From Enterobacter phage vB_ExiM_F4M1E, in the sequence record OL744216.1: a stretch of DNA of 64,000 bases, one strand, 5' to 3'. Below, one piece after another: positions 37,068 to 57,909 of this stretch. Position numbers and translations under genes: made by a program. The notes beneath the pieces were generated by a model that ran no database searches, was not told where the DNA came from, and saw only the letters and a list, made by a program, of their open reading frames with translations. Each line of letters starts with the position of its first letter. The first letter of the stretch is position 1.

Positions 37068-37130
37068 TACTTGAATCGTATTTTTGTTCATGCTACCTTA
37101 TTGTTCACTAAACATGAACAGGAGAGCACC

Positions 37131-37694
37131 ATGAACAAAGTCTTATCCCCGGCAGAGCAGCTTGCCATGATGATCAAGCTGGCAGCAACCCACCATATGA
37201 AGCAATTCGATAAGGGTGGTCGCCCTTACGTCCTGCACGTCCTGAAGGTGATGCATTACCTTAAAGACAAGGATGATGACGAACTAAACTGTATCGCAGT
37301 TGGTCACGATCTGATCGAAGACACTCCGGTTCAACAGTGCGACCTGGAACGCTTAGGTATCTCCGATCGTGTCATCGACGGGATCACCCGCTTAACCAAG
37401 GTCCAGTTCCAGTCTCATGATGAATATCTGAAGGATATTCTGAAGAGCCATGACGCCTGCCGTGTTAAGCTGGCTGACCTGCGCCACAACACAGATATCC
37501 GCCGTCTGAAAGGTTTGCGTCAAAAAGACTTGCAGAGAATCCAAAAGTACCATAAAATGCACATGCAGATTAAGGACATGATTGCATGGTACGAAGACAA
37601 CCATTTGAGCATGTTCTCTTTCCCGGGTGATTACTTTGATGCCCGCAACGAGCAGGTAAAATCAATCATGGAGAAAGAATACGATGCGAATTAA
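37131..37694 (+). CDS. small alarmone hydrolase ((p)ppGpp/(p)ppApp hydrolase, HD domain, Mesh1/SpoT-hydrolase-like)
   Basis: HD-domain motif GGRPYVLHVLKVM...AVGHDLIEDT; AGGAGAG RBS; first gene of rightward block. Confidence 0.65.
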   Translation: MNKVLSPAEQLAMMIKLAATHHMKQFDKGGRPYVLHVLKVMHYLKDKDDDELNCIAVGHDLIEDTPVQQCDLERLGISDRVIDGITRLTKVQFQSHDEYLKDILKSHDACRVKLADLRHNTDIRRLKGLRQKDLQRIQKYHKMHMQIKDMIAWYEDNHLSMFSFPGDYFDARNEQVKSIMEKEYDAN

Positions 37695-38029: not shown

Positions 38030-38556
38030 AAAAGACCCTGAGCATTGAACCAGTTGTTTCTACGTACCTCGGTCGCCCCTATGGTATGGGTGACGATTCT
38101 GTACTTGACGATGGTGACTGGCTGGATCTGGAGGATGACAAGCAGTATACGATCACCCGACTCGGATGCCGGATCAACAAGGTGGAACCGTCGGAAACGT
38201 ACTGCATGTATTACTTCCTTCACGCCATGAAGCCTGGCTGGAAGGGTGATTACCAGAAAGGTTGGACGTGGGATTCTTTCTTCACCTGTTCCTGTGGACA
38301 CGGCGGCTGTGCCGGGTATCACGAGAACGTCCGTATCCATCGCAAGAAGGCCACTGTCCGGGTAATGGGTAAGGTATCAGACGGGTACAAGGACGGAGTT
38401 GTCGGGACCGGGCAGGATGTTGTATACTTCGACAAGAAGCAGTGGGACGGTGTACGGGAATATTATCTCGACCTGTTCCGCAAGAACCCGGAAGGTATCT
38501 TCCAGGATAACGAAATGTTCTTCACCGGGCGATTTGGCCTGGCAACATGGGGTTGA
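38026..38556 (+). CDS. hypothetical protein
   Basis: 176 aa ORF, ATGA overlap. Confidence 0.5.
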   Translation: MKKTLSIEPVVSTYLGRPYGMGDDSVLDDGDWLDLEDDKQYTITRLGCRINKVEPSETYCMYYFLHAMKPGWKGDYQKGWTWDSFFTCSCGHGGCAGYHENVRIHRKKATVRVMGKVSDGYKDGVVGTGQDVVYFDKKQWDGVREYYLDLFRKNPEGIFQDNEMFFTGRFGLATWG

Positions 38557-38558
38557 GA

Positions 38559-39173
38559 ATGAAGCGTACCAAAGTAATGAACAAAGCGCGATTCCGCAAA
38601 TCCTTTTTGGGCTTTGCTGTCGCGGCTGTTGTAACCTTCACCCTGTCCGGCTGTGAGCAGGCTGACGAAACGGTGAAGCTGTACATGAACTCTGAGCAGT
38701 GTGCCAAAGAAAGTGGCAATACTCTCGAACAGTGCCAAACTGCGGAGAAAGAAGCCCAAAAGGTTGCCGCAGAAACGGCACCGAAGTTTGGGACGTATGC
38801 GGAGTGCTACGAAGAGTTTGGCAGTATGTGTCAGCACAACACAGCGGCTGCTGCCAGCACGGGCGGAGAATCGCCTTGGATGCCCCTGATGATGGGCTAC
38901 ATGCTGGGCAATATGATGGGGTCAAGTAACTCTTATCATGCGGCACCGATGTATCAGAGCCGTTCTGGTAAGTGGGTGGATAACAAGGCCCGGTCTTACG
39001 ATGTGAAGCCGGGCAAATCGTTCAAAGTAACGAAGTCTGCCATTAAGCCAAAGGTTGAGGCACCGCGATCCACTTGGTCCGGTTCCAAATCCAGCTTCTC
39101 CTCGTCAAAGACAACCACCCGTGGCGGGTTCGGTTCCTCTGTGGGGCGTAGTAGCAGTTCTTTTGGTGGATAA
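38559..39173 (+). CDS. lipoprotein with Gly/Ser-rich C-terminus
   Basis: signal peptide with lipobox LSGC. Confidence 0.5.
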   Translation: MKRTKVMNKARFRKSFLGFAVAAVVTFTLSGCEQADETVKLYMNSEQCAKESGNTLEQCQTAEKEAQKVAAETAPKFGTYAECYEEFGSMCQHNTAAAASTGGESPWMPLMMGYMLGNMMGSSNSYHAAPMYQSRSGKWVDNKARSYDVKPGKSFKVTKSAIKPKVEAPRSTWSGSKSSFSSSKTTTRGGFGSSVGRSSSSFGG

Positions 39174-39178: not shown

Positions 39179-39206
39179 TTGACTTATCAGATGGCCCATA
39201 TATAAT
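39179..39206 (+). promoter_or_regulatory. sigma70-type promoter TTGACT-N16-TATAAT with -10 embedded in GGCCC...GGGCC palindrome
   Basis: GGCCCATATATAATGGGCC spans the -10 element upstream of the MoxR gene. Confidence 0.5.
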
Positions 39207-39238
39207 GGGCCTTATTGACAACAAAGAGGAGAAATTCA

Positions 39239-40477
39239 ATGCAGCAGACTTACAAACGTACTGACCAGACGATGTTCAAGAAACGTATTTCCATTCGTCA
39301 AATGGAAGATCTGATCCGTCTCGGTGCCCGTATCGGTAAAACCACCTTCTTCTTCGGCGGCGCGGGCCTCGGTAAGTCCCAGAAAGTGTTGCAGATTGCA
39401 AATAGTATGTTCCCCCATCGTGTTGGGGACAATCTTTGTGACGTGCGTCTGTCTGACAAAGAACCACAGGATATCGCAGGTATCCCGGTCCCGGTAACCT
39501 ATTTCGATCCGGTTCAAGGCAAAGAAGTTACCCGTACTGTGTACGCATGTCCGAGTTTCTGGCCTACTGACCCAAACTGGGAAGGTATCGTGTTCTTGGA
39601 TGAACTGCCGAACGCAATGCTGGGCACTCAGCACTCTGCGTATCAGGTCATTCTGGATCACGTTGCAGGTGACCACCGATTCCCGAAAGGCTGTGTGTTC
39701 GTTGGCGCAGGCAACCGTGACACAGACAACGCAGGCACTACCGAGATGCCGGGGCCGCTGGTTAACCGTATGATCATGGCGGAGGTTGAGTACAACTTGG
39801 ATGTTTGGATCGAGGACTATGCTGTTCCGTTCAAACTTCACCCGCACGTGATCGGTTTCCTGAAACAGTTCCCTGAGCATTTTTACACAGGTGACGTAGA
39901 GAAGCGCTCTACCCCTGTGTTTGCATCACCTCGCCAGTGGAAAACTGTTTCTGATATCCTGTACGATTACGAAGTAGAGAAGAACGAGTACATCACTGAG
40001 ATCGCGATCGCGGGTTCTGTCGGTGAAGGTCTGGAAACCGCTGTTCTGGCGTACCATTTACGTGCCGCCGAACTGCCGAAAGTAGAAGACATCTTCTCCG
40101 GTAAAGTTAAGAAGCACGAACTATCTCGTGAGAAGAACGACCTGGTTTACGTACTGGCGCAGACCTGCTTACGTCAACTGGAAAAAGAAGTGATGGATAA
40201 TAACATGAACGATGAAGATTTCATCGAACGTGCCAGCAATTTCCTGAACTTCATGTTCAATAACTACTACAAGGCGAATAAAGATACCATGATCGCACTC
40301 ATGATTGGCATCTTCCGTGCATCCAATACGGATCAGCAGGCGATTCTGAGCATGAACCCGAAACGTACCAAGATGATCCCGGCCCTGCGTAAAAATTGCG
40401 AAGCAGTCATGACTATCGTAATGGAATACCAGACCCGTTACGGTAAAATCATGGAAGATTTCAACGCGAAGGCTTGA
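39239..40477 (+). CDS. MoxR-family AAA+ ATPase
   Basis: Walker A GGAGLGKS, Walker B VFLDELPNA; AGAGGAGAAA RBS at MQQTYKRT. Confidence 0.75.
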   Translation: MQQTYKRTDQTMFKKRISIRQMEDLIRLGARIGKTTFFFGGAGLGKSQKVLQIANSMFPHRVGDNLCDVRLSDKEPQDIAGIPVPVTYFDPVQGKEVTRTVYACPSFWPTDPNWEGIVFLDELPNAMLGTQHSAYQVILDHVAGDHRFPKGCVFVGAGNRDTDNAGTTEMPGPLVNRMIMAEVEYNLDVWIEDYAVPFKLHPHVIGFLKQFPEHFYTGDVEKRSTPVFASPRQWKTVSDILYDYEVEKNEYITEIAIAGSVGEGLETAVLAYHLRAAELPKVEDIFSGKVKKHELSREKNDLVYVLAQTCLRQLEKEVMDNNMNDEDFIERASNFLNFMFNNYYKANKDTMIALMIGIFRASNTDQQAILSMNPKRTKMIPALRKNCEAVMTIVMEYQTRYGKIMEDFNAKA

Positions 40478-40543
40478 CATCACAACCTGAACTGATAAAA
40501 TTGGGTCATCTTTCGAGATGGCCCTTTTTCTTTTGGAGGAAAT

Positions 40544-42100
40544 ATGTTCGACAATATTATGAGTGCCGAGGAGCTTGAACTTGCCAACGCAAATACCGAA
40601 GAGGCAGAGAAACTCCTTGAGGCGGCAAGTCTTCAATTGATGCGCTACAAGCCCTTCTATGGGGTAATGCTGGCATCAATGCCGATCACCCGTGCCACAG
40701 AGACCATCAATACGATGGCTACCAACGGGCGTGACCTGTTTTATTCTCCGGAGTTCGTCGCCGGGATGTGTGACAAGCGCAAGGCGCTGGTAAAACAGCG
40801 TATTGACCAGCAGATCACGGACAAGAAAAAGAACGCAGAGATGAAGTTGATGATCGATGTGTTTTATCGTCGCAAGACTGCCCGTGAGGTGGCCTTGGTG
40901 CTGGAGCACGAATGCGATCACGTCGTTTCTGAGCACATGTACCGTGGGAAAGGATACAACTTCGCGCTGTTCAACATTGCAGCCGACCACCGTATCAATA
41001 CGAACGCTGTTCTCAACCACACGACGAATAATGAGATGGGTACAGCTTGGTTCCCTATGGGTGCCAAAACGGTGTTCGACCCAGACAAAGAATTTGGCTT
41101 CATGAAGTGGGCATACTGTGATTTCCAGTACGCAGATATGTATGCGGAACAGATCTATGAGCTTCTCGTTAAGCAGACCCCTCCCCCTCCGCCGAGCGGT
41201 GGTGGCGGTGGTGCATCGGGAAGCGGAGAGGAAGGTCAAGGTGATTCCGGTGGTCAGGGTAATGGCCCGATGGGTACTGACCAACACCCAAATGCAGACG
41301 GGACCTTCAGTGAGCAGGATGGGGAAGACGATCTGTCCAAAGCAATGGGCACTGACCCGGGGGCTATGAAGCCGCTGACCCAGGATCAAAAGAACTATAA
41401 CGACACGGTAATGCGCCGGGCCATCGAAAACGCTGTTCAGGCAGCGGGCAAGGGAGCGCCAGCAGATGCCCGTAAGTTTGTGGAAGAGGCCGGAAAGCCG
41501 AAGGTTAACTACCTGCGCCTGTTACGTCGGACAATTGAGCGTCTGTTCAAAGACAACGTTTCATACCGCCGTTTAAACCGCCGCAGTTACTCCCTGACGC
41601 GATCTTTACGCCAGGCGGGGTATCTGACCTCTCGACAGACGATCGGCCTTCCTTCGTACACCAAGGCCAAGACAATCCGTGCCCACGTGTTCTTCGACGT
41701 GTCTGGATCGTTCACCGATGATCTTCTGGGGCCGACCAAACGGGAAATCAAGGGGCTGTGCAATCAGTATGAGGACTTTGAGGTCACAATGGCGGCTTGG
41801 TCCACAAAGGTTGGTAACATTTGCACGTACACGAAGAAGAACCTGAAGGAGATTGATAACTATAAGATCAAGACGACTTACGGGACGGATGTGAAGTGCG
41901 TGTTCGAATGTCTTGATGAACTTGACAAAGAGCCGGACCAGATTGTAATCTATACAGATGGTTACTTCTCCGATGTATCTCAGACCAAAAACTGGGCAGA
42001 GAAGTATGGCAAGAAGACTCTGTGGATCATTTTGGGCCGTCATGGGCCGGAATGGACGCCACCGTTTGGAACTGCAATTGACTTTGACAAATACCTGTAA
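40544..42100 (+). CDS. VWA-domain protein with N-terminal HExxH putative metallopeptidase module (DUF2201-like partner of MoxR)
   Basis: MIDAS-like FDVSGSF...YTDGYF; HECDH zinc-peptidase-type motif; immediately downstream of the MoxR ATPase. Confidence 0.6.
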   Translation: MFDNIMSAEELELANANTEEAEKLLEAASLQLMRYKPFYGVMLASMPITRATETINTMATNGRDLFYSPEFVAGMCDKRKALVKQRIDQQITDKKKNAEMKLMIDVFYRRKTAREVALVLEHECDHVVSEHMYRGKGYNFALFNIAADHRINTNAVLNHTTNNEMGTAWFPMGAKTVFDPDKEFGFMKWAYCDFQYADMYAEQIYELLVKQTPPPPPSGGGGGASGSGEEGQGDSGGQGNGPMGTDQHPNADGTFSEQDGEDDLSKAMGTDPGAMKPLTQDQKNYNDTVMRRAIENAVQAAGKGAPADARKFVEEAGKPKVNYLRLLRRTIERLFKDNVSYRRLNRRSYSLTRSLRQAGYLTSRQTIGLPSYTKAKTIRAHVFFDVSGSFTDDLLGPTKREIKGLCNQYEDFEVTMAAWSTKVGNICTYTKKNLKEIDNYKIKTTYGTDVKCVFECLDELDKEPDQIVIYTDGYFSDVSQTKNWAEKYGKKTLWIILGRHGPEWTPPFGTAIDFDKYL

Positions 42101-42108
42101 GGAGAATT

Positions 42109-42486
42109 ATGTCACAGTACGGTTATCAATTGGAGTGTGGTCGCCGGGGGGCGACTCTCTCTGTCTTCCGCCTGGATGCATCCGGCGGCGTGGAGTACAC
42201 TTGGAAAGCGATTTTTAACAGCCGGGGCATGGAAGTGGTAAGGTCCACAGGGGAGGGTATTGAAACTCAACTGGCGCACTTTGAGACATTCCTGTACCCA
42301 GATCGTGTTGAAGAGGATGAACTGGCATTCGTGGATCTTCTTTCGATGTCTCCTGTGGAGGAGGATCATGATTTTATCCGGTTGTGTTCCTTCTTGGTTG
42401 CCAAGTGGGCAGCGGGCCACAATGAAGAGATGTTGCACGATGTGATCCGATCCACAATCAAAAGGTGGTCAGAAAAGACAACATGA
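42109..42486 (+). CDS. hypothetical protein, third gene of MoxR operon
   Basis: 125 aa ORF, GGAGAA RBS. Confidence 0.5.
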   Translation: MSQYGYQLECGRRGATLSVFRLDASGGVEYTWKAIFNSRGMEVVRSTGEGIETQLAHFETFLYPDRVEEDELAFVDLLSMSPVEEDHDFIRLCSFLVAKWAAGHNEEMLHDVIRSTIKRWSEKTT

Positions 42487-42492
42487 CCCTAT

Positions 42493-42521
42493 GTGCCCCG
42501 GAAGGCACACAAAACAATAAT
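42493..42521 (+). terminator. weak terminator-like hairpin
   Basis: TGTGCC-ccggaa-GGCACA followed by an A/T-rich stretch. Confidence 0.3.
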
Positions 42522-49390: not shown

Positions 49391-49417
49391 AATAATGCTT
49401 GACGGGGCCGACGATAG
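49389..49417 (+). promoter_or_regulatory. family promoter TTGACG-GGGCCgacgataGGCCC-CATAAT
   Basis: 17-nt spacer with GGGGCC/GGCCCC inverted repeat; CACATAGCGACGCAC motif follows. Confidence 0.6.
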
Positions 49418-49479
49418 GCCCCATAATTCACCACATAGCGACGCACACCGCGCCGCACTAACAAAGAGAGACCGTCATC

Positions 49480-49917
49480 ATGTTACATTCAATCAATAAA
49501 GAGCAAAAACTGTACGTCCTGAAGTGTGGCAACGGCTTTACCTGCTATGGGTTCGAAGTGCTGGACACAAACGCCCGCAAGGTTAAGCAGTGGTTAGAAT
49601 CTGAAGGTGCAACAGTTGAGGATCTGCCATATCGCAAGGGCACAAAGAAGCATTATAAAGCCTGTCAAGATATGATCGCCGCTGGTTGTGCTTATCATGC
49701 CAGAACGGGCAAACGCTGCCTTGCTGGACTCACCAAACAATTAAAGGGCCTGGAGGGTCGCCGGGTAGAAGTGATCACAATGTACGGCGAAAAGCGCCGC
49801 TTTATTGTGGGTCGCTCTACTGGCTGGATGCCTGCCCACCTGGAGATCGCCCGCGCTAACAGTAGCGGCGGCATGAGTGCAGAGCAGCAATATAAATCTG
49901 TAACCATCGTAAAATAA
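49480..49917 (+). CDS. array gene 2, hypothetical (145 aa, Cys-containing)
   Basis: CA-rich leader CTAACAAAGAGAGACCGTCATC-ATG. Confidence 0.55.
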   Translation: MLHSINKEQKLYVLKCGNGFTCYGFEVLDTNARKVKQWLESEGATVEDLPYRKGTKKHYKACQDMIAAGCAYHARTGKRCLAGLTKQLKGLEGRRVEVITMYGEKRRFIVGRSTGWMPAHLEIARANSSGGMSAEQQYKSVTIVK

Positions 49918-49930
49918 TTTAAAAAGAGTA

Positions 49931-49959
49931 TTGACACCGGGGCCACCTGGCCCCATAAT
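49931..49959 (+). promoter_or_regulatory. family promoter TTGACA-ccGGGGCCAccTGGCCCC-ATAAT
   Basis: consensus -35/-10, palindromic spacer; GCCCGGCAAA direct repeat follows. Confidence 0.6.
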
Positions 49960-50007
49960 ACAAACAAGCCCGGCAAATGGTGCCCGGCAAAATCAGAGAG
50001 TAAAGAA

Positions 50008-50230
50008 AATGGCTAAAGTAACCTATAAAAAATCACGTGGCGTCTCCTCTGTTAACCTGGCGGCGGTTGTAACCCTGCCCGCATACCGTACCCGTGACGA
50101 GGCGCGCGCCGTTGCCAGTAAGATCCGCGCCGCTGGCGTGACTCCGACAACGCCAACCAAAACGGCGGACGGCTGGCGCGTTACCGCAAAGCATAACGGC
50201 GGCACACTTTCCCGCAACACTCACCGCTAA
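50008..50230 (+). CDS. array gene 3, hypothetical (73 aa, start MAKVTYKK)
   Basis: AGAGAGTAAAGAAA RBS. Confidence 0.5.
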
Positions 50231-50239
50231 CCAATTGCA

Positions 50240-50262
50240 GGCCCCGCCGGGGGCCTTTTGTG
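50240..50262 (+). terminator. terminator-like hairpin GGCCCC-gccg-GGGGCC + TTTTGTGT
   Basis: same palindrome as promoter spacers, here followed by a T-run. Confidence 0.45.
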
Positions 50263-50275
50263 TGGAGTCAGTACC

Positions 50276-50620
50276 ATGACCAAACAGATCTACCATGTAC
50301 CGATCACGCCGCTTTTCCGTTGTCATATCTTTTATGACTGTAATGATCTTGCGGGGCAATGGATCGGCGATACCGATCAACAATATGATTTCCCGGAATG
50401 GGACGAACTAAACCGCCGTGTAAGCAACGCCGCACACAATGCCGATCCTGATAGCCTGGCGGACGTGGAACACTTCCCCGGCGGGGCCGCTTGCTTTCCT
50501 TATATTGAGATCACCGCGCCAACGTGGGCGCTATGTAAAGCGATGGGCGACGCCGTGATCCGTTGCATCCTGGACAATGGCGGGATCGTCGAACCAAAAG
50601 ACAACGGAATAAATATTTAA
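50276..50620 (+). CDS. array gene 4, hypothetical (114 aa, start MTKQIYHV)
   Basis: GGAGTCAGTACC RBS. Confidence 0.5.
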   Translation: MTKQIYHVPITPLFRCHIFYDCNDLAGQWIGDTDQQYDFPEWDELNRRVSNAAHNADPDSLADVEHFPGGAACFPYIEITAPTWALCKAMGDAVIRCILDNGGIVEPKDNGINI

Positions 50621-50639
50621 ATTATTTTCGTTTTAGGGG

Positions 50640-50668
50640 TTGACGCCGCCCGGGGTTACCCTCATAAT
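50640..50668 (+). promoter_or_regulatory. family promoter TTGACG-N17-CATAAT
   Basis: followed by CACATAGGGCGACGG motif. Confidence 0.55.
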
Positions 50669-50720
50669 GTACCACATAGGGCGACGGAATAACCCGCCGC
50701 CAAAACCAAAAGGTAACAGT

Positions 50721-50960
50721 ATGCAAACCGTAATGATTAGCCACCCGGATCACGCTTCAGACTTCTACGCCCCGATCTACGCCCCGCTTGATTGGCAACG
50801 CCAGGGCCTGCAAAAAACCGCCACGGGCTATGGCACAAAGATCCCAACGTCCTATATGTTGGACTATCAAGGCAAGCGCCGTCGGATCTACGTTGACCAG
50901 TACAGCAACAGCGGCCACACTTACATCATGATCAAAGGCGAAAAAATTACGGTCTGCTAA
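50721..50960 (+). CDS. array gene 5, hypothetical (79 aa, start MQTVMISH)
   Basis: CA-rich leader + AAAAGGTAACAGT. Confidence 0.5.
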   Translation: MQTVMISHPDHASDFYAPIYAPLDWQRQGLQKTATGYGTKIPTSYMLDYQGKRRRIYVDQYSNSGHTYIMIKGEKITVC

Positions 50961-50969
50961 AAATAATTG

Positions 50970-50998
50970 TTGACCGGGGGCCGGAAAGGCCCCATAAT
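50970..50998 (+). promoter_or_regulatory. family promoter TTGACC-GGGGGCCggaaaGGCCCC-ATAAT
   Basis: 17-nt palindromic spacer. Confidence 0.6.
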
Positions 50999-51030
50999 AC
51001 CAGACATACCAAACAAACGAGGCTTTACAA

Positions 51031-51261
51031 ATGAATCTGACTACTATCGGCGCTAACCAAACTATGATCACCCTGGCAAATGGCGCACAGGTTTTCTTTT
51101 CCTACAATACCCCGGTTGCGGCATACCTGCCCGGAGAGGGCTACTTGGTGACCGCCACAAAGCACAGCGCCACCACCTCAAAGCATGTTAATGCTTGGGC
51201 TGGCAAAGGTTGCGAGACCCGCCCACAGGAATTTTTTGATAATCTTATCAAATCCGCTTGA
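51031..51261 (+). CDS. array gene 6, hypothetical (76 aa)
   Basis: leader ACCAAACAAACGAGGC. Confidence 0.5.
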   Translation: MNLTTIGANQTMITLANGAQVFFSYNTPVAAYLPGEGYLVTATKHSATTSKHVNAWAGKGCETRPQEFFDNLIKSA

Positions 51262-51287
51262 CGCTGGTTTCTGCCGGGGTATATAAT
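51258..51287 (+). promoter_or_regulatory. family promoter TTGACG-N18-TATAAT with CCGGGG-tatataat-CCCCGG palindrome spanning -10
   Basis: palindrome arms flank the -10 hexamer. Confidence 0.55.
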
Positions 51288-51339
51288 CCCCGGCATAGGC
51301 AAGCGAAAGCAAACAACCAAACCGAAAGGATACCAAACG

Positions 51340-51720
51340 ATGAATATTTTCAACACTGTAAACGCCGCCGACATCAAAGAAATTTCCGTAACTGGCAAAC
51401 GTTGGTTTCAGCGTAGCTATGGCAACACGTATCACAGCGTAAGCGTCGCCGCCGTGGTATCACGTGAGACAGCCGAAAACTTGGGGGCTAATCCATCCCC
51501 GGCGGGATCTGGCGACGTGTGGATCGACCTGGGTTATGTTGGGTTCGCTTATGGTTATGATCGCGGGTTCGAACAAACCGCCCTGGCTATCCTGATCGAG
51601 GCTGTAAGCGATGCGCCGCAGGACTGGAAACAAAATTCATACGCTTGCCAGGTGGCAACGGCTTTAAATGTGCCTTACTCCGAAAACGTTTATGATGTTA
51701 GCCGCAAAAAGGATTTATAA
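51340..51720 (+). CDS. array gene 7, hypothetical (126 aa)
   Basis: leader CAAACAACCAAACCGAAAGGATACC. Confidence 0.55.
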   Translation: MNIFNTVNAADIKEISVTGKRWFQRSYGNTYHSVSVAAVVSRETAENLGANPSPAGSGDVWIDLGYVGFAYGYDRGFEQTALAILIEAVSDAPQDWKQNSYACQVATALNVPYSENVYDVSRKKDL

Positions 51721-51726
51721 TTTAGG

Positions 51727-51756
51727 TTGACACGGGGCCGGGTTAGGCCCCATAAT
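51727..51756 (+). promoter_or_regulatory. family promoter TTGACA-cGGGGCCgggttaGGCCCC-ATAAT
   Basis: palindromic spacer. Confidence 0.6.
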
Positions 51757-51788
51757 ACCCACAGACCCAAACAAAAGAGTAAAACGCG

Positions 51789-51998
51789 ATGATTAACGAG
51801 CAGCAAGTAAACGACGTAAAACATGAGGCTTATCAGGTGGCGATCCGTAGTGGTTCCCGCGCCGCCTTCAATCTGGTTGTTGAGTTGTACCCTGAACAGG
51901 CGGAAAATATTTTAATGCAGGTTTCCGTATTACTGGAAGCAACAAAGCACACCAAATTAAGCGCCGGGATCGATAAGCTGGCAAAAAGTTTAAAATAG
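51789..51998 (+). CDS. array gene 8, hypothetical (69 aa)
   Basis: leader CCCAAACAAAAGAGTAAAACGCG. Confidence 0.5.
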   Translation: MINEQQVNDVKHEAYQVAIRSGSRAAFNLVVELYPEQAENILMQVSVLLEATKHTKLSAGIDKLAKSLK

Positions 51999-52002
51999 TT
52001 GT

Positions 52003-52031
52003 TGACTCTTACCCCGTCCCGCTGGCATAAT
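52003..52031 (+). promoter_or_regulatory. family promoter TTGACT-N17-CATAAT with GTCCCGCT...AGCGGGAC palindrome spanning -10
   Basis: 8-bp arms flank the -10. Confidence 0.55.
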
Positions 52032-52086
52032 AGCGGGACTGATTAAGAGAAACACCACACAAACCAAACTAAAGAGAGTAAACATT

Positions 52087-52476
52087 ATGAACGCTAATTA
52101 TGACTTTTCCCAAATGGTTGTCGCATCCTCTACCGATCTGCGTAACTTCCGCAAAGAAAATAACTTTTACAAGGCCGTTCACCTGGTCGGGCTGGTAGAC
52201 GGGGAGATCAAAGATCTGGCGGAGGTTTCATTCTACGGCACCGGGAAAACCAACACGGCTATTTTGTGGATTCACTCCCCGATCCTGTCTCTCTATGGTT
52301 CAAGCGCTGGCAAGGCTGGCGGCTACGGTTACAACCGTGAGGACGCCGCTTTTCAAAGCGCCTTGCGGGGAATGGGGATCAAAAGTACAGGTTACGAATT
52401 GCCACGTGATTTTTTCCCGGCGCTTGCAAAGCATTTAGGGGTTGATGTATACTCAATCATCGAATCACACGGTTAA
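52087..52476 (+). CDS. array gene 9, hypothetical (129 aa)
   Basis: leader ACCACACAAACCAAACTAAAGAGAGTAAAC. Confidence 0.55.
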   Translation: MNANYDFSQMVVASSTDLRNFRKENNFYKAVHLVGLVDGEIKDLAEVSFYGTGKTNTAILWIHSPILSLYGSSAGKAGGYGYNREDAAFQSALRGMGIKSTGYELPRDFFPALAKHLGVDVYSIIESHG

Positions 52477-52481
52477 TATGA

Positions 52482-52796
52482 ATGATAACTATTCTCACAA
52501 TGCTGGGACTTGCGGCGGCGGCGATTTACTGCGTCGCTACTTATAAAGCGTCTGTATGGCGAAAGGGTCAAAAAATGTACGGCTATTTTGAATATGAGTA
52601 CAAAGGGGAGAAGGGATCAAGCCGGGACTATGGCGCGATGTTAGAGATCGATATGGTTGGCGCGATGAACTACCGCCAGGAGTTGGGCGCGGTGATCACG
52701 TATGAAGTTTACAAGTCATCTGAGGATGAGATCGGGCAGATAATTGATCAACGTTACTATATGGAACAGCAACAAAACAAACGCCGGAGAAAATGA
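52482..52796 (+). CDS. array gene 10, membrane-anchored protein (104 aa)
   Basis: N-terminal TM helix ILTMLGLAAAAIYCVATY. Confidence 0.5.
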   Translation: MITILTMLGLAAAAIYCVATYKASVWRKGQKMYGYFEYEYKGEKGSSRDYGAMLEIDMVGAMNYRQELGAVITYEVYKSSEDEIGQIIDQRYYMEQQQNKRRRK

Positions 52797-52933
52797 GAAT
52801 GATTCACACTAACGAGAACCGCCAAAAGGCACGACCCCGCGCCCGCCTGTCATATGCTGAAGCCGAGGACCGCCTACAGCGTGAAAAGAGCAACAAACAA
52901 CAGCGCCGCAAAACGCGCTATAACTGGGAGTAA
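52793..52933 (+). CDS. array gene 11, basic micro-protein (46 aa, MRMIHTNEN...)
   Basis: ATGA overlap; its start codon context AAATGAGAATGATT is itself a Fur-like/ATTCTCAT box. Confidence 0.3.
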   Translation: MRMIHTNENRQKARPRARLSYAEAEDRLQREKSNKQQRRKTRYNWE

Positions 52934-52977
52934 GCGCCCCGGCAGGGAAACACTAGGCCAAACCGTTTAAACCGCAC

Positions 52978-53005
52978 AGGGGGCCTTACAGGCCCCTTAT
53001 TTTTG
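52978..53005 (+). terminator. rho-independent terminator GGGGCC-ttaca-GGCCCC + TTATTTTT
   Basis: family palindrome used as terminator stem with a T-run. Confidence 0.6.
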
Positions 53006-53009
53006 ATCT

Positions 53010-53249
53010 ATGGGGTACACAATGCAAAACCTTTACAGCATGACAGAATTTATCCGCCTCCTGGCGGGCCGTCCGATGGGCTTTACCTGCCTTTACTTGG
53101 TAAACGACGGCAAAGGCTACCGGATAACCTCAAAGTCATTAGCCGCCATTGCAGCGCGGGAAGGGGTGAAGATCTCCACCTCTCAGGCGCTCATTGTTGA
53201 CCCGGCGACCGTGGCGACGATTGAGGCGATCCGAGTCACCGTAAAATAA
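53010..53249 (+). CDS. array gene 12, hypothetical (79 aa; alternative start 53022)
   Basis: no dedicated promoter, may be read through. Confidence 0.4.
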   Translation: MGYTMQNLYSMTEFIRLLAGRPMGFTCLYLVNDGKGYRITSKSLAAIAAREGVKISTSQALIVDPATVATIEAIRVTVK

Positions 53250-53273
53250 TTCAAATATTTTCATTCCGGGGCT

Positions 53274-53301
53274 TGACGCCCGGCCCCGGTTCCCCCATAA
53301 T
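53274..53301 (+). promoter_or_regulatory. family promoter TTGACG-N16-CATAAT
   Basis: followed by CACATAGCGACGCACACCGCGACGCAC direct repeat. Confidence 0.55.
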
Positions 53302-53352
53302 ACACCACATAGCGACGCACACCGCGACGCACCAAACAAAAGAGAGTCCGTA

Positions 53353-53772
53353 ATGTCTACTAAAAATCCTTTCCGCATCAAATCAGGTTTATCCGTTTAC
53401 GCACTGGCTTGCGGCTACGTTCAGCAAATCGACACCGAAGTAACCGGGGAAAGTATCCGGGTACAATTGAGAATGGAACACGGCGCGTTTCACGTGCAGG
53501 CGTACAACTTCACCGAACACGGGCGGATCGAATGGGTAGTAGAGGACATGATCGGCGACGCTCGCACACAATGGCAACGCCTTGTAAATCAGATTTTTGG
53601 CGACACCATAAAGGCGACCAAAAAGGATCGCCGCTATACGGTAAATCGTGAGTATCGCGGGGAGAGTGACCCGGCGTATGTGACCCGCTTTTGTGGGGAG
53701 TATGTAGACTACAGCGACACCGCCGCCGCTGGCTGGATTAAGGCCGCAGAACACAAGGCCGGAAAACTTTAA
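53353..53772 (+). CDS. array gene 13, hypothetical (139 aa)
   Basis: leader CACCAAACAAAAGAGAGTCCGTA. Confidence 0.55.
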   Translation: MSTKNPFRIKSGLSVYALACGYVQQIDTEVTGESIRVQLRMEHGAFHVQAYNFTEHGRIEWVVEDMIGDARTQWQRLVNQIFGDTIKATKKDRRYTVNREYRGESDPAYVTRFCGEYVDYSDTAAAGWIKAAEHKAGKL

Positions 53773-53780
53773 AATAGTTG

Positions 53781-53810
53781 TTGACGCCGGGCACCGTCCC
53801 GGCTTACAAT
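53781..53810 (+). promoter_or_regulatory. family promoter TTGACG-CCGGGcaccgtCCCGG-cttACAAT
   Basis: variant palindrome CCGGG/CCCGG. Confidence 0.55.
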
Positions 53811-53841
53811 ACCCAAACACAAACAAAAGAGAGTCAACACC

Positions 53842-53994
53842 ATGAAACATTATTTAGTAAACATCCCTGGCGTGGCTGGCCCGCTGAAAGTTTACGGCTA
53901 CGACGAACAGGACGCAAGAAAGCGCCTACGTGATCGGGAAGGGTACGGATCACGCCTCCCACGTGGCACAAAACTTTATTTGCAAAACGCTTGA
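53842..53994 (+). CDS. array gene 14, micro-protein (50 aa)
   Basis: leader CACAAACAAAAGAGAGTCAACACC; 3' end overlaps the next promoter. Confidence 0.4.
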   Translation: MKHYLVNIPGVAGPLKVYGYDEQDARKRLRDREGYGSRLPRGTKLYLQNA

Positions 53995-54020
53995 CGTGTG
54001 GTTATGCCGTCGCCTACAAT
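53991..54020 (+). promoter_or_regulatory. family promoter TTGACG-N18-TACAAT with TATGCCGT...ACGGCATA palindrome spanning -10
   Basis: 8-bp arms flank the -10. Confidence 0.5.
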
Positions 54021-54066
54021 TACGGCATAGACAAACGAAAGCAGACAACCAAACGAGGGTTAAATT

Positions 54067-54360
54067 ATGTTTGAAGTATTCGCCGGAATGTGCTTTTATG
54101 CCGCCGCCGCTTTAAAGCAGTGTGATGATTTTGTTGTGGAGTCCTACGACGATCCGCTGACGTGTGAGATCGTGGCGACCGATTACCGCCAGGACACCCG
54201 CTGGATTAACCCGGCTTGTATTCCATCGCCAGAAGTCGAACCGATGCCAGAAGGCGAAGAGATTCAAGATCCTGCCGTGGCTGTTACCTCGTTTTTTGTG
54301 GATAATCTGGACGCCGCCGCGCTGGTCCAAATGTACGCAAGCCAGGAGGCCGCACAATGA
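54067..54360 (+). CDS. array gene 15, acidic hypothetical (97 aa)
   Basis: leader CAAACGAAAGCAGACAACCAAACGAGGG. Confidence 0.5.
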   Translation: MFEVFAGMCFYAAAALKQCDDFVVESYDDPLTCEIVATDYRQDTRWINPACIPSPEVEPMPEGEEIQDPAVAVTSFFVDNLDAAALVQMYASQEAAQ

Positions 54361-54500
54361 ACCACAGCCGCAACATTGCAAAGCGCCGCCGCCCTAATTC
54401 CAGCGCCGCCAATGATGAGCGCCGGATCGCTGGTTTCATCGCTTGCGGCTACACCGTACAGCAGGCCCGGCAAATGGTAAAAGCAAAAGGCAGAAAATAA
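54357..54500 (+). CDS. array gene 16, basic micro-protein (47 aa)
   Basis: ATGA overlap with gene 15. Confidence 0.35.
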   Translation: MNHSRNIAKRRRPNSSAANDERRIAGFIACGYTVQQARQMVKAKGRK

Positions 54501-54503
54501 TTG

Positions 54504-54533
54504 TTGACACCGGGCACCGTCCCGGCTTATAAT
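54504..54533 (+). promoter_or_regulatory. family promoter TTGACA-CCGGGcaccgtCCCGG-cttATAAT
   Basis: near-duplicate of promoters at 53781 and 54755. Confidence 0.55.
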
Positions 54534-54571
54534 TCAGCTACACCAAACAAAACAGGCAAACGAGGCCACAA

Positions 54572-54751
54572 ATGAAATCATCCTTACTTTTCGCCCTGGT
54601 AGACATAGTGATCGGCAATGGTTGCGGTCAACATACCTTCATTGCAAACCGTCCCTATCCGCTCAAATCGTTGCAGGCCGACGCCCGCCTAACCGCCGGG
54701 CAGATCCGCCGCTACTTTCGTGAACCACACCCGGCAAAAACTGCAAAATAA
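54572..54751 (+). CDS. array gene 17, micro-protein (59 aa)
   Basis: leader ACACCAAACAAAACAGGCAAACGAGGCC. Confidence 0.4.
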   Translation: MKSSLLFALVDIVIGNGCGQHTFIANRPYPLKSLQADARLTAGQIRRYFREPHPAKTAK

Positions 54752-54754
54752 TTG

Positions 54755-54784
54755 TTGACGCCGGGCACCGCCCCGGCTTATAAT
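54755..54784 (+). promoter_or_regulatory. family promoter TTGACG-CCGGGcaccgcCCCGG-cttATAAT
   Basis: near-duplicate. Confidence 0.55.
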
Positions 54785-54814
54785 TACCGAACACAAACAA
54801 ACGAGGCTACAAAA

Positions 54815-55114
54815 ATGCAACAGGCAAACACTCTTTTCATTCTGGCAAACGTAGCGGATCACGTTGTGGCGTCACTGTCCAACGTGGCGGGCACCGTGCA
54901 GATCATTTGCCGCCATATGGATGACACCGCGCCGAACCGCCTACAAATCAACGTAGACCGTAAAGGGGCCGACTTTGTGATCTCTTATGATGCCATTTAC
55001 AACGGGCGGCGCTTTATGCAGGCCAAAAGCGACCCGATCCCGGCTAACTACATTCAGGAGGCGATCGCCGTCCTGGTAAACGACACTATCCCGGCGGGGG
55101 CTATGTTACCATGA
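54815..55114 (+). CDS. array gene 18, hypothetical (99 aa, start MQQANTLF)
   Basis: leader ACACAAACAAACGAGGCTAC. Confidence 0.5.
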   Translation: MQQANTLFILANVADHVVASLSNVAGTVQIICRHMDDTAPNRLQINVDRKGADFVISYDAIYNGRRFMQAKSDPIPANYIQEAIAVLVNDTIPAGAMLP

Positions 55115-55266
55115 ATCCGCATAAACTTTTAATCACCGCCTACCCAAACAAGGCGGATCGCCGTGAAACTTTGGACCGCTTAACCCTGTATTATCAGGAG
55201 GCCGGGCACAGTAAAGCGACGGCCCGCGCCTTGGCTAAAAAACGTTTACGTTTTGGTAAAAATTAG
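55111..55266 (+). CDS. array gene 19, basic micro-protein (51 aa)
   Basis: ATGA overlap. Confidence 0.35.
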   Translation: MNPHKLLITAYPNKADRRETLDRLTLYYQEAGHSKATARALAKKRLRFGKN

Positions 55267-55267
55267 C

Positions 55268-55296
55268 TTGACGCCCGGCCCGAAAGGGCCGATAAT
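55268..55296 (+). promoter_or_regulatory. family promoter TTGACG-cCGGCCCgaaaGGGCCG-ATAAT
   Basis: followed by CACATAGGGCG + GCGGGGA-atggt-TCCCCGC hairpin. Confidence 0.6.
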
Positions 55297-55342
55297 CTCT
55301 CACATAGGGCGGGGAATGGTTCCCCGCATTATCTAAGAGGTT

Positions 55343-55501
55343 ATGAATATGTTTACTTTGATGACTTGGGAACACGAATCAAGCGCCCCTGTCCGCCGGA
55401 CCTTTGAAAACTTATGCGCCGCTTATCGCCTGGCGCAAGGCGGTTACTATAAAGCCCAAATCATCGACGAAAATAATATTGTAATGTACGAATTTAAATG
55501 A
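55343..55501 (+). CDS. array gene 20, micro-protein (about 51 aa)
   Basis: TAAGAGG RBS; two in-frame ATGs. Confidence 0.4.
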   Translation: MNMFTLMTWEHESSAPVRRTFENLCAAYRLAQGGYYKAQIIDENNIVMYEFK

Positions 55502-55530
55502 TTGACATCCGGCCCGAAAGGGCCGATAAT
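55502..55530 (+). promoter_or_regulatory. family promoter TTGACA-tCCGGCCCgaaaGGGCCG-ATAAT
   Basis: duplicate of 55268 promoter. Confidence 0.6.
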
Positions 55531-55566
55531 GACCCCACACCAAACAAAAGAGAGAGAGACCGTAAA

Positions 55567-55773
55567 ATGATTACTATGATTCTTCAAAAGTCCCGCCTGA
55601 TTGATGTTACCGTTACCCTGTCCGCTTGCGGTGACACGTCCCGCCGGGCCGATCATTACCAGGTGACCGCTGTTAGTGATCGCGGCGCTGTCCTGCTGTC
55701 TGAAGTAACAGAGCATTTGCACGAGGCTTTTAAAACCTATTCAAAGTGGAAAGGCGACGAAGAAATAAAATAA
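55567..55773 (+). CDS. array gene 21, hypothetical (68 aa, start MITMILQK)
   Basis: leader CACCAAACAAAAGAGAGAGAGACCG. Confidence 0.45.
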   Translation: MITMILQKSRLIDVTVTLSACGDTSRRADHYQVTAVSDRGAVLLSEVTEHLHEAFKTYSKWKGDEEIK

Positions 55774-55781
55774 AAATCCGC

Positions 55782-55811
55782 TTGACGCCGGGGCCACGTT
55801 GGCCCCATAAT
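55782..55811 (+). promoter_or_regulatory. family promoter TTGACG-ccGGGGCCAcgtTGGCCCC-ATAAT
   Basis: palindromic spacer. Confidence 0.6.
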
Positions 55812-55845
55812 GCCACCACACCAAACGAATAAAGAGAATCACAAA

Positions 55846-56100
55846 ATGTTAAAATTCATCAAATCACTTTTCACCCGCACCACCCCGGCTTGCAAGTTGC
55901 CACCCCTGGAGGCTAAAGGCGTGATCGCTCGCAAAGTCTCAGAATTGTTTATCATTTCATTGGTTCACAACGGCGGAGACTGTTACGAAATCATCGAAAT
56001 GGGCCGCTACACTAAAACAGGGTCAAGCCGTGTCCGTTACGGTGAACACCGCGCCCGGAATCATTTTGATTCTGTATGCTGTATGGTGGGTGCAAAATAA
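55846..56100 (+). CDS. array gene 22, hypothetical (84 aa, start MLKFIKSL)
   Basis: leader CACCAAACGAATAAAGAGAATCAC. Confidence 0.5.
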   Translation: MLKFIKSLFTRTTPACKLPPLEAKGVIARKVSELFIISLVHNGGDCYEIIEMGRYTKTGSSRVRYGEHRARNHFDSVCCMVGAK

Positions 56101-56103
56101 ACC

Positions 56104-56132
56104 TTGACGGGGCCAACGTTAGGCCCCATAAT
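56104..56132 (+). promoter_or_regulatory. family promoter TTGACG-GGGCCaacgttaGGCCC-CATAAT
   Basis: followed by CACATAGGGCGACAC motif. Confidence 0.6.
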
Positions 56133-56184
56133 GTAACACATAGGGCGACACAACGCCGCCCACAAACAGAAAAGAGATCGTAAA

Positions 56185-56544
56185 ATGAGCAAATACACCC
56201 CGTGGGAACCAATGTACAAAATCACCCTGTCCGAGTGCAGCAAAAACGAACTGGATGGAATTGTCCGCGCCGCTACTGCCGTGATCCGTGGGCTTAACTT
56301 CAAACGTTTAACCTTCAAAGAAGTAAAACAAATTTTTGAAATGCCGGATCACAAGGCCGCTTCCCGCTTGGGGCTTACTGTAACATCGCAAGGGCTTTAC
56401 AAAGATCACGACCTTAAAGGGCCGCACGTGTGGCTTTTAGCTTGCGCCGTGGGCCGCACCATTGCCGACACTATCAAAGAGATGAAAGCGCTACGCGATG
56501 ACGCAAAAGCCCGCCGGGCCGCGCTGGAAGTGGCACAAAAATAA
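56185..56544 (+). CDS. array gene 23, hypothetical (119 aa)
   Basis: leader CACAAACAGAAAAGAGATCG. Confidence 0.55.
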   Translation: MSKYTPWEPMYKITLSECSKNELDGIVRAATAVIRGLNFKRLTFKEVKQIFEMPDHKAASRLGLTVTSQGLYKDHDLKGPHVWLLACAVGRTIADTIKEMKALRDDAKARRAALEVAQK

Positions 56545-56557
56545 TTTAAAAATAAAG

Positions 56558-56587
56558 TTGACGCCGGGAAGCGTTACGGGCTATACT
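56558..56587 (+). promoter_or_regulatory. family promoter TTGACG-N18-TATACT
   Basis: degenerate palindrome CCGGGaagcgttaCGGG. Confidence 0.45.
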
Positions 56588-56635
56588 CTTTTCATCGGGT
56601 CACAACAGACCAAAACAAACAAAGAGAGAAACAAA

Positions 56636-56713
56636 ATGAGCGTAATCTTCCTGGTATCTGTTTTCGTAGCTATCGCATCTTCTACCGCAATTTGTATCAA
56701 ACTGGGATACTAA
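56636..56713 (+). CDS. array gene 24, 25-aa hydrophobic peptide (MSVIFLVSVFVAIASSTAICIKLGY)
   Basis: own promoter and leader ACCAAAACAAACAAAGAGAGAAAC; single TM helix. Confidence 0.4.
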   Translation: MSVIFLVSVFVAIASSTAICIKLGY

Positions 56714-56717
56714 TAAA

Positions 56718-57571: not shown

Positions 57572-57596
57572 CACCCGGCGGAATAGGGCCGATAAT
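57568..57596 (+). promoter_or_regulatory. family promoter TTGACA-N17-GATAAT
   Basis: followed by CTCATAGGGCG + CGGGGA-atgg-TCCCCG hairpin; overlaps the end of gene 26. Confidence 0.55.
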
Positions 57597-57649
57597 GTCT
57601 CTCATAGGGCGGGGAATGGTCCCCGGCCCAATGACCTGGAGTCAGTACA

Positions 57650-57901: not shown

Positions 57902-57909
57902 CCCGGCCC

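Follow-up and report, generated by a model that had tools for sequence, protein, structure and literature searches.

Positions 39179-42486 of the DNA analysed here, a stretch of 64,000 nucleotides from Enterobacter phage vB_ExiM_F4M1E (OL744216.1) that we refer to as the window, encode a 412-aa MoxR-like AAA+ ATPase, a 518-aa protein with DUF2201_N and DUF2201 domains, which joins a probable zinc protease to a VWA domain, and a 125-aa orphan protein. Transposon-insertion data for what are, by sequence, the orthologues of the first two genes in the sister phage Bas54 point to the possibility that this module, an accessory of a virulent Certrevirus, acts early against host defence as a remodeller or protease that is driven by ATP and guided by the MIDAS. 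We judge the case for and against this reading to be evenly balanced.

The three proteins of the module

The phage belongs to the virulent Certrevirus (Vequintavirinae) and is 91-95% identical to CR8, KaOmega and SS-2025. All three open reading frames claimed in a previous sequence-only reading of this DNA were found on the + strand (Table 1), and the motifs it had named (GGAGLGKS, FLDELP, HECDH, DVSGS and YTDGYF) were all recovered on translation.

The ATPase open reading frame spans 39215-40477, and the ATG at 39239 is the start that is provided with a ribosome-binding site. From this start the protein is equal in length to its CR8 counterpart. Both the Walker A (GxxGxGK[ST]) and Walker B (hhhhDE) consensus motifs are present, with G40, G43, K46, S47, D121 and E122 invariant across 28 homologues. 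Among solved structures, CbbQ and NorQ, two members of the MoxR family, match it best, and the sequence profile matches midasin AAA units (E 4e-16), so that the MoxR assignment made from the sequence is supported. In the model, strands 66-70 and 117-121 flank a long beta-hairpin (residues 82-103), and strand 153-158 is preceded by short strands at ~142-147; by position only, these are candidates for the helix 2 and pre-sensor 1 beta-hairpin inserts. Database models recover the family poorly: no Pfam match was obtained at E <= 0.1 besides a chance one to MMS19_C, the AAA_5 and AAA_3 models having failed, and NCBIfam gave no match. Precomputed PF07728 (AAA_5) and PF00004 (AAA) annotations are carried by 1/74 and 2/74 homologues, respectively, all of them distant.

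For the 518-aa protein, both Pfam domains score above their curated gathering cut-offs (DUF2201_N, PF13203, E 3.1e-23, 83.2 bits against 23.2; DUF2201, PF09967, E 6.2e-8, 33.2 bits against 26.4) and both are present in 59/59 homologues, while NCBIfam contains no match. At the C-terminus, the MIDAS is complete (DxSxS...T...D), its residues D385, S387, S389, T448 and D472 being invariant in 49 sequences. Two fold searches of the model returned VWA (Rossmann-like) structures only, NorD included, in lists that were filled by VWA matches. At the N-terminus, HECDH sits on model helix 113-133, with H126 invariant. A second invariant residue, D148, lies 22 residues past H126 on the next helix, within the motif NxAxDxxIN, and is by inference a candidate third metal ligand. 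HExxH and D148 are retained together in 48/49 homologues, including those at 20-26% identity. When the profile of this domain was searched against the PDB, only M48 peptidases (HtpX, BepA) aligned, at the HExxH helix and with non-significant E values of 1.2-1.9. The N-terminal domain is a probable, still putative, zincin-like zinc protease. Together, the Pfam domains, the conserved HExxH and MIDAS residues and the VWA fold uphold the earlier description of a DUF2201 peptidase-like protein with a VWA/MIDAS domain. We found no literature report on any DUF2201 protein. PHROG 1314 and RefSeq label this family "HNH endonuclease", which is a mislabel, and correcting it has practical value.

The 125-aa gene starts 8 nt past the stop codon of the 518-aa gene, and the two are probably co-transcribed. 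Its product matches phrog_12385 (unknown function), 21 cluster representatives among 1.84 billion, and 30 phage records. Neither Pfam, NCBIfam nor the PDB contains anything similar, and relatives do not extend beyond this small phage family. Wherever both positions could be seen, the gene lies directly 3' of the DUF2201 gene, down to 28-37% identity. It is an accessory protein specific to its lineage. The 126-aa gene product that follows MoxR in rV5 and Bas54 was considered as its counterpart and rejected as unrelated. Within the module, single-sequence PDB searches returned nothing useful.

Transcription units and gene order

Table 1 Features of the module, with coordinates in the window
Feature	Position	Strand	Remark
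Promoter P1: TTGACT (39179-39184), 16-nt spacer, TATAAT (39201-39206)	39179..39206	+	upstream of ATPase gene
Palindrome/hairpin GGCCCAT-ATATA-ATGGGCC around P1 -10	39193..39211	+	
ATPase ribosome-binding site AAGAGGAG	39224-39231	+	
412-aa MoxR-like AAA+ ATPase gene	39239..40477	+	start with ribosome-binding site
ATPase Walker A GGAGLGKS	39356-39379	+	translation
ATPase Walker B FLDELP (VFLDELP)	39593-39610	+	translation
Promoter P2: TTGACA, 16-nt spacer, extended TG, TAAAAT	40474..40501	+	overlaps ATPase stop codon
Intrinsic terminator: 9-bp hairpin 40503-40524, then TTTTTCTTTT	40503..40534	+	terminator scan
518-aa DUF2201 protein gene	40544..42100	+	ORF, Pfam
HECDH of N-terminal HExxH domain	40907-40921	+	translation
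D148, candidate third metal ligand	40985-40987	+	
Disordered Pro/Gly linker of 518-aa protein	residues ~212-262		
C-terminal VWA domain	~41666-42097	+	
MIDAS DVSGS	41696-41710	+	translation
125-aa orphan protein gene	42109..42486	+	own AGGAG
Weak hairpin past 125-aa gene, without T-run on + strand	42492..42509	+	-8.8 kcal/mol, z -2.2

The promoter P1 matches 11/12 consensus positions, and its TTGAC and -10 are kept in CR8, KaOmega, PBES02, POP15, SSBI34 and W70. As had been noticed from the sequence, its -10 sits inside a GGCCC...GGGCC palindrome, which occurs once in the window against 0 occurrences expected by chance and folds at -12.5 kcal/mol. Across relatives, 95.8% of cells in this hairpin are paired and 3/7 pairs show compensatory changes. 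The palindrome is one instance of a promoter-hairpin theme that recurs across the window.

All three genes had been placed under this one promoter. P1 is real, but single control did not hold, as P2 and a terminator separate the first gene from the second. P2 also matches 11/12 consensus positions, and 8 phages from at least three genera all keep its TTGAC. The terminator hairpin begins 2 nt past the P2 -10 and folds at -14.2 kcal/mol (z -4.6). In its stem all cells are paired across relatives, with compensatory changes in 6/9 pairs in 7 distinct relatives, a level of covariation that was matched by 0/500 shuffles, and in phiTE a terminator is annotated at the same place. P2 and the terminator both recur in other genera, and with the two elements set between the ATPase and 518-aa genes, the three genes do not form a single simple operon. 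After the module, a strong promoter on the + strand is next encountered at 42646. No Rfam family matched in the region, and its opposite-strand ORFs are without family matches.

The module heads a rightward block of small genes with sigma70-type promoters, beside the replication block, and its genes are not within a structural module. This position fits early expression and supports the early-region placement proposed before; in the literature on this phage group we found no transcriptome, virion-proteome or timing data. Just upstream is a gene for a DUF1190 lipoprotein that weakly resembles entry-exclusion lipoproteins.

The order ATPase, DUF2201, 125-aa is constant in Certrevirus, SSBI34 and W70, and the adjacency of the first two genes extends to distant metagenomic phages. 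In rV5, Bas54 and Bas57 the ATPase and DUF2201 genes are instead divergent and ~3.6 kb apart, and at one further locus (L004) four genes lie between them. Each is single-copy per genome. By tblastn at one and the same threshold, 806 phage records contain the ATPase and 325 the DUF2201 protein. The jumbo phages 121Q, PA5oct and K64-1 are among the homologues, as are, for the ATPase, large myoviruses with complex tails. All distant homologues inspected are phage-borne in appearance.

Genetics in Bas54 and competing readings

Escherichia phage Bas54 (MaxBurger), an rV5-like Vequintavirus, encodes a MoxR protein (bas54_0063) and a "putative metallopeptidase" (bas54_0055). They align over their full lengths with the window's ATPase (35% identity over 392 residues, E 2e-88) and 518-aa protein (35% identity, E 2e-103), and each pair falls in one PHROG (1297 and 1314, respectively), on which grounds we treat them as orthologues. 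Both were covered by HIDEN-SEQ, a transposon-sequencing preprint that is not peer reviewed and whose sheet S6 duplicates S7 (10.1101/2025.11.20.689424, 2025). On K-12, insertions were tolerated at 60/64 TA sites of the MoxR gene and 81/86 of the metallopeptidase gene, and both genes were called non-essential. By contrast, bas54_0063 and bas54_0140 were reported as "specifically required to overcome DS-28", a cloned defence system. On host CFE311, which carries DS-28, the supplement gives a log2FC of -7.23 (q 0) for bas54_0063 and of -2.20 (q 0.00896) for bas54_0055; the latter depletion is absent from the main text. Disruption of the peptidase-VWA gene thus costs ~4.6-fold, versus an abolition of growth for the ATPase gene, and since these costs differ, the ATPase is not strictly dependent on the peptidase-VWA protein. 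For DS-28 itself, we found no description beyond "small uncharacterised, plasmid-borne". The second strong gene, bas54_0140, was examined as a VWA partner or a 125-aa homologue and is neither; a homologue was found neither in the window nor outside Vequintavirus.

These results lend genetic support to the anti-defence idea raised from the sequence. The accompanying statement that no experimentally characterised phage example was known is now outdated, the preprint providing the first. In the mechanism that we propose, host sigma70 RNA polymerase would transcribe the ATPase gene from P1 and the peptidase-VWA and 125-aa genes from P2, the terminator insulating the two units from each other. The ATPase may form a CbbQ/NorQ-like MoxR ring, onto which the VWA domain would dock the 518-aa protein. 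The intact MIDAS could then capture a target protein, most likely some component of host immunity, by one of its acidic residues, and this protein would be remodelled via ATP hydrolysis and then probably cleaved by the fused HExxH zincin-like domain. Early timing, and the transfer of the Bas54 phenotype to the present phage, are inferred. Against the counter-defence reading stand the only 35% identity of the Bas54 orthologues, their divergent arrangement, the unequal costs of disrupting them, the lack of a bas54_0140 homologue in the window and, for the protease step, the fold searches that recovered VWA structures only and the non-significant M48 matches.

The same data bear on the other roles that such a module could have. 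Because both Bas54 genes tolerate insertions on K-12, infective virions form without MoxR or the metallopeptidase, which speaks against a virion-assembly chaperone and processing protease, one that would help tail or capsid parts to fold or assemble and would trim structural proteins. For group 2.2 jumbo phages with the same architecture, this role was put forward by Iyer et al. 2021, who cite the precedent of Acidianus two-tailed virus, and the complex tails of the myoviruses with ATPase homologues would suit it. With the genes among small sigma70-driven genes rather than in a structural module, and with a requirement in Bas54 that depends on the host and was traced to a defence system that had been cloned, we regard virion assembly as highly improbable. 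The structural matches raise the case of an enzyme activase or metal-cofactor insertion machine (CbbQ-CbbO for Rubisco, NorQ-NorD for nitric oxide reductase, CoxD-CoxE, CobS-CobT) for the maturation or reactivation of a metalloenzyme of phage or host, in place of an attack on a defence protein: CbbQ and NorQ are the nearest solved structures, NorD is among the VWA matches and, as far as the available sources go, most MoxR systems studied to date are maturation factors. However, CbbO, NorD and CobT are without the HExxH domain that is conserved in the 518-aa family, no candidate client enzyme is conserved adjoining the module, and in Bas54 the phenotype depends specifically on a defence system, so we give this explanation little credence. 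A conflict module directed against other mobile elements or the infected cell (superinfection exclusion or regulated self-destruction), like the bacterial vWA-MoxR ternary systems, would be in line with the upstream lipoprotein and with Kaur et al. 2020 (eLife 9:e52696), who describe vWA-MoxR systems that have peptidase effectors as serving in conflicts. PADLOC defence models match none of the three proteins, the 125-aa protein resembles nothing outside its own family, and the Bas54 data favour counter-defence over exclusion, which makes this role very unlikely.

A different division of labour was also considered, in which the ATPase, alone or with other partners, is the anti-defence effector, the DUF2201 and 125-aa proteins are separate or auxiliary, and their adjacency in Certrevirus is historical. 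The divergent genes of rV5, Bas54 and Bas57, the four intervening genes in L004, the separate promoter per gene and intervening terminator in the window, the larger number of ATPase records, the gap in depletion on CFE311 and the unrelated nature of bas54_0140 all favour it. Yet a VWA partner is usual for MoxR ATPases in the sources available, the depletion of the peptidase-VWA gene on CFE311 is nonetheless significant (q 0.009), and several genera, besides the distant metagenomic phages, have the two genes side by side. We hold this version to be unlikely.

A wider form of the counter-defence reading, which we advance tentatively and hold to be less likely than not, is that the module represents a new mechanistic class, an ATP-driven and target-specific "anti-immune protease", in which a MoxR ring and a MIDAS adaptor would seize a host immune protein for the fused zincin to unfold and cut, the 125-aa protein would set specificity or restrain the protease, and hundreds of phages (Vequintavirinae, jumbo, N4-like) would carry relatives retargeted to different defence systems. 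Known anti-defence proteins are mostly small stoichiometric inhibitors or simple enzymes. If the reading is true, an ATP-driven remodeller with a protease would be a different, possibly retargetable, anti-defence strategy and, because the ATPase and DUF2201 proteins occur in so many phage records, one solved mechanism would annotate many genomes. The depletion of bas54_0055 on the DS-28 host makes the two-protein hypothesis directly testable.

Comparison with known systems

The pairing of MoxR with a peptidase-VWA protein in phages has already been described, and the module in this sense is not new: group 2.2 jumbo phages pair a MoxR AAA+ ATPase with a vWA protein that begins with a metallopeptidase domain at its N-terminus (Iyer et al. 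2021, Viruses 13:63). The two-protein architecture is the same as in the window, whereas identity to the window's proteins is 22-33%, no third gene is described, and the virion assembly or processing proposed there is not favoured by the Bas54 data for Vequintavirinae. Another virus-encoded pair, p618 (MoxR) and p892 (VWA) of Acidianus two-tailed virus, has experimental support as a chaperone; according to the available description, it is set apart by its archaeal virus, the lack of a peptidase domain and its part in extracellular tail development.

CbbQ-CbbO and NorQ-NorD likewise consist of a MoxR AAA+ hexamer and a VWA/MIDAS adaptor. Unlike the 518-aa protein, their adaptors are without HExxH, and these systems act on metabolic enzymes; at the sequence level identity is 15-17%, and neither Pfam model (AAA_5, AAA_3) recognises the phage ATPase. 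In the bacterial vWA-MoxR-VMAP systems, the vWA protein can carry a fused peptidase domain, in rare cases a metallopeptidase (Kaur, Burroughs, Iyer, Aravind 2020, eLife 9:e52696). Like the module, they have a MoxR ATPase together with a vWA protein and one further component, but they are host-side and have large VMAP effectors. As the 125-aa orphan has no similarity beyond its small family, nothing ties it to the large VMAP components, and with no VMAP-type third component and no PADLOC match, the module was rejected as such a ternary system. From the Bas54 MoxR and metallopeptidase, the only source of the DS-28 phenotype to date, the module differs in gene arrangement, in having the 125-aa gene, which has no homologue there, and in that bas54_0140 is also needed in Bas54. 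Both phages are Vequintavirinae, and their predicted orthologues share conserved Walker, HExxH and MIDAS motifs.

Genomic setting and transcription of the trio

The 3.3-kb stretch carrying the trio shares 95% nucleotide identity with Enterobacter phage SS-2025, 92% with Klebsiella phage KaOmega, 91% with Cronobacter phages CR8 and CR3, and 80% with Pectobacterium phage phiTE. Relatives with taxonomy records belong to Certrevirus (subfamily Vequintavirinae) and are virulent myoviruses of ~145-150 kb. Replication genes (DNA polymerase, primase/helicase, Dda-like helicase) form a minus-strand block up to ~37 kb of the window; there a plus-strand block starts, made up largely of small genes of unknown function, with the trio at its head. 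All three ORFs proposed by the sequence-only reading are present as described, and translation returned every motif quoted for the ATPase and the 518-aa protein. Searches of the opposite-strand ORFs across the trio gave no family matches, and no Rfam family was matched either.

Features of the trio and its surroundings
Feature	Coordinates	Strand	Description
HD-domain protein gene	37071-37694	+	phrog_990, metal-dependent phosphohydrolase
DUF1190 lipoprotein gene	38547-39173	+	lipobox LSGC; Pfam E 3.4e-35; directly upstream of ATPase gene
P1 (promoter before ATPase gene)	39179-39206		TTGACT-16-TATAAT; 11/12 consensus positions
P1 palindrome	39193-39211		19 nt, GGCCCAT-ATATA-ATGGGCC
ATPase gene	39239-40477	+	412 aa from the most likely start
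P2 (promoter before 518-aa gene)	40474-40501	+	TTGACA at 40474, 16-nt spacer, TG-TAAAAT ending at 40501; 11/12 matches; overlaps ATPase stop codon
Intrinsic terminator	40503-40534	+	9-bp hairpin starting 2 nt after P2 -10, then TTTTTCTTTT
DUF2201 protein gene	40544-42100	+	518 aa
125-aa protein gene	42109-42486	+	
Promoter-hairpin region	49399-59670	+	~20 sigma70-like promoters

Two upstream neighbours are of note. The HD-domain protein matches only the C-terminal half of a 413-aa phiTE/PcCB7V protein annotated 'GTP pyrophosphokinase'; it is a candidate stand-alone alarmone hydrolase at the front of the putative early block. The DUF1190 lipoprotein, found in CR8 and SSBI34 and missing from W70, weakly resembles EexN and TrbK, two entry-exclusion lipoproteins, with scores below threshold.

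As the sequence-only reading had claimed, the -10 of P1 lies inside a GGCCC...GGGCC palindrome, which occurs once in the window (0 expected by chance) and covaries across relatives. The same reading had placed the whole trio under this one promoter, and this does not hold: P2 and an intrinsic terminator separate the ATPase gene from the 518-aa gene. Eight phages from three or more genera share an invariant P2 -35. The terminator hairpin folds at -14.2 kcal/mol (z -4.6) and retains 100% pairing in seven distinct sequences, with compensatory changes at 6 of the 9 pairs, which none of 500 shuffles equalled; because the comparison covers few sequences, and related ones, this covariation supports the hairpin without proving it. 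P1 transcripts would end at the terminator, and P2 transcripts would start within its 5' arm, avoid being terminated there and carry the DUF2201 and 125-aa genes, separated by just 8 nt. The 40474-40534 segment has the layout of a compact insulator-plus-restart cassette, a promoter followed immediately by an intrinsic terminator, conserved across genera and with a covarying hairpin.

The P1 palindrome is one instance of a wider promoter-hairpin theme. Promoters in the 49399-59670 region are spaced 250-500 bp apart, and each has a GC-rich hairpin that either occupies the spacer or surrounds the -10; promoter-like sites number 52, against 22.9 +/- 4.5 in shuffles. Their common layout is an A/T-rich upstream stretch, TTGAC(G/A), and a hairpin-forming spacer of 70-85% GC whose 3' arm runs into (C/T)ATAAT. 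For 12 of these 20 promoters the hairpin reaches -12 kcal/mol or lower, a stability that no more than 1 of 200 shuffles equalled, and its arms vary between copies yet remain complementary. At 51258, 52002 and 53991 the -10 sits in the hairpin loop instead, as in P1.

The three proteins

The most likely start of the ATPase is the ATG at 39239, with AAGAGGAG just before it, as annotated in CR8. The protein matches no Pfam or NCBIfam model, curated sequence models do not recognise it as a MoxR-type AAA+ protein, and a precomputed Pfam AAA-type domain is found in only 3 of 74 homologues, all three distant. Because a profile built from 28 homologues nevertheless matches midasin AAA units (E 4e-16), we place it, as a divergent member, among the MoxR-type ATPases of the CbbQ/NorQ/dynein-midasin kind. 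The MoxR assignment of the sequence-only reading is thus borne out by motif, fold and pairing with a VWA protein, though not by curated models. In NCBI, the ATPase of SSBI34 goes under the name 'ribosomal protein uS19'.

Pfam confirmed the proposed combination of HExxH and VWA/MIDAS in the 518-aa protein: DUF2201_N (E 3.1e-23, 'putative metallopeptidase domain') and DUF2201 (E 6.2e-8, 'VWA-like domain') both score above curated cut-offs. Among 49 homologues, with identity down to 20%, HExxH is retained in 48, and H126, D148 (motif NxAxDxxIN) and the MIDAS residues D385, S387, S389, T448 and D472 are invariant. In the AF2 model (mean pLDDT 79) the N-domain is well predicted and the Pro/Gly linker (214-261) is disordered. 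Two fold searches with this model returned lists filled by VWA matches; the N-domain profile matches only M48 zinc peptidases (HtpX, BepA), on the HExxH helix and at non-significant E (1.2-1.9). Support for the putative peptidase assignment comes from the family match, the conserved motif and its position on a helix.

PHROG 1314 and RefSeq (CR3, CR8, PBES02) label this protein 'HNH endonuclease', which is wrong: it is a DUF2201 peptidase-VWA protein. Genuine HNH homing endonuclease genes adjoin the DUF2201 gene in PcCB7V and phiTE, and may be the source of the mislabel. In several Pectobacterium phages they lie exactly in the ATPase-DUF2201 intergenic region (4508-4783 of the PcCB7V locus, 4331-4843 of the phiTE locus), and PcCB7V has a further one upstream of the ATPase gene. 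Other records call the protein 'anti-sigma factor' or 'DNA repair ATPase'. The POP15 annotation (448-3309 of its locus) ties the ATPase-DUF2201 pair to Sll7029 and Sll7028, which we take to be locus tags of Synechocystis PCC 6803 plasmid pSYSA; if that holds, the pair has relatives in cells or on plasmids.

The 125-aa protein belongs to a small family (21 cluster representatives among 1.84 billion proteins; 30 phage records) and resembles no Pfam family and no PDB sequence. Its gene directly follows the DUF2201 gene in every record where both positions were seen, even at 28-37% identity; no homologue was found in rV5-like phages.

A candidate counter-defence module

The weightiest external evidence for the role of the trio comes from the HIDEN-SEQ transposon-sequencing preprint (10.1101/2025.11.20.689424), which includes Escherichia Vequintavirus Bas54. 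Our ATPase is 35% identical to Bas54 MoxR (bas54_0063) over its full length (E 2e-88) and the DUF2201 protein 35% identical to bas54_0055 (E 2e-103); the members of each pair fall in one PHROG, and each gene is single-copy per genome. According to the supplement, both genes are non-essential on K-12 (hit at 60/64 and 81/86 TA sites, respectively). On E. coli CFE311, which carries the predicted two-gene defence system DS-28, the MoxR gene was lost completely (log2FC -7.23, q 0) and bas54_0055, unmentioned in the main text, was significantly depleted (log2FC -2.20, p 0.0009, q 0.00896), figures that cover CFE311 only, sheet 'Data S6' (K-12 vs CFE303) repeating the run given in 'Data S7' (K-12 vs CFE311). 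The DNA helicase bas54_0068 was also strongly depleted on CFE311 (log2FC -6.32). The preprint reports that Bas54 needs both the MoxR gene and a further gene, bas54_0140, to overcome DS-28. bas54_0140 was detected in Vequintavirus records only, and tblastn of the window gave no match to it.

By analogy with the Bas54 orthologue, the best-supported reading, held with moderate confidence, is that the trio serves counter-defence, as a dispensable module probably expressed early. In this model, a MoxR ring of the CbbQ/NorQ type would partner a MIDAS adaptor bearing its own zincin-like domain; the complex would capture a host immune component through the MIDAS, remodel it and probably cleave it, and the Bas54 phenotype would extend to F4M1E. 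It is possible, if unlikely, that the ATPase works mainly alone in counter-defence, given that the peptidase-VWA gene is far less depleted on CFE311, and given its location in rV5-like phages, where the two genes are divergent and ~3.6 kb apart.

Virion assembly and processing were proposed for the MoxR/metallopeptidase-vWA pair of jumbo phages (Iyer et al. 2021, Viruses 13:63), and a Bacillus phage 0305phi8-36 deletion removing its MoxR/vWA pair is viable, with a growth defect. For Vequintavirinae, however, non-essentiality on K-12 and genomic position make an assembly role highly improbable, and on the same grounds we consider it very unlikely that the ATPase and VWA protein form an enzyme maturation machine.

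The interpretation given by the sequence-only reading is largely supported, although earlier publications had foreshadowed it. The ATPase itself is already annotated as MoxR in rV5, phiTE and BASEL phages.
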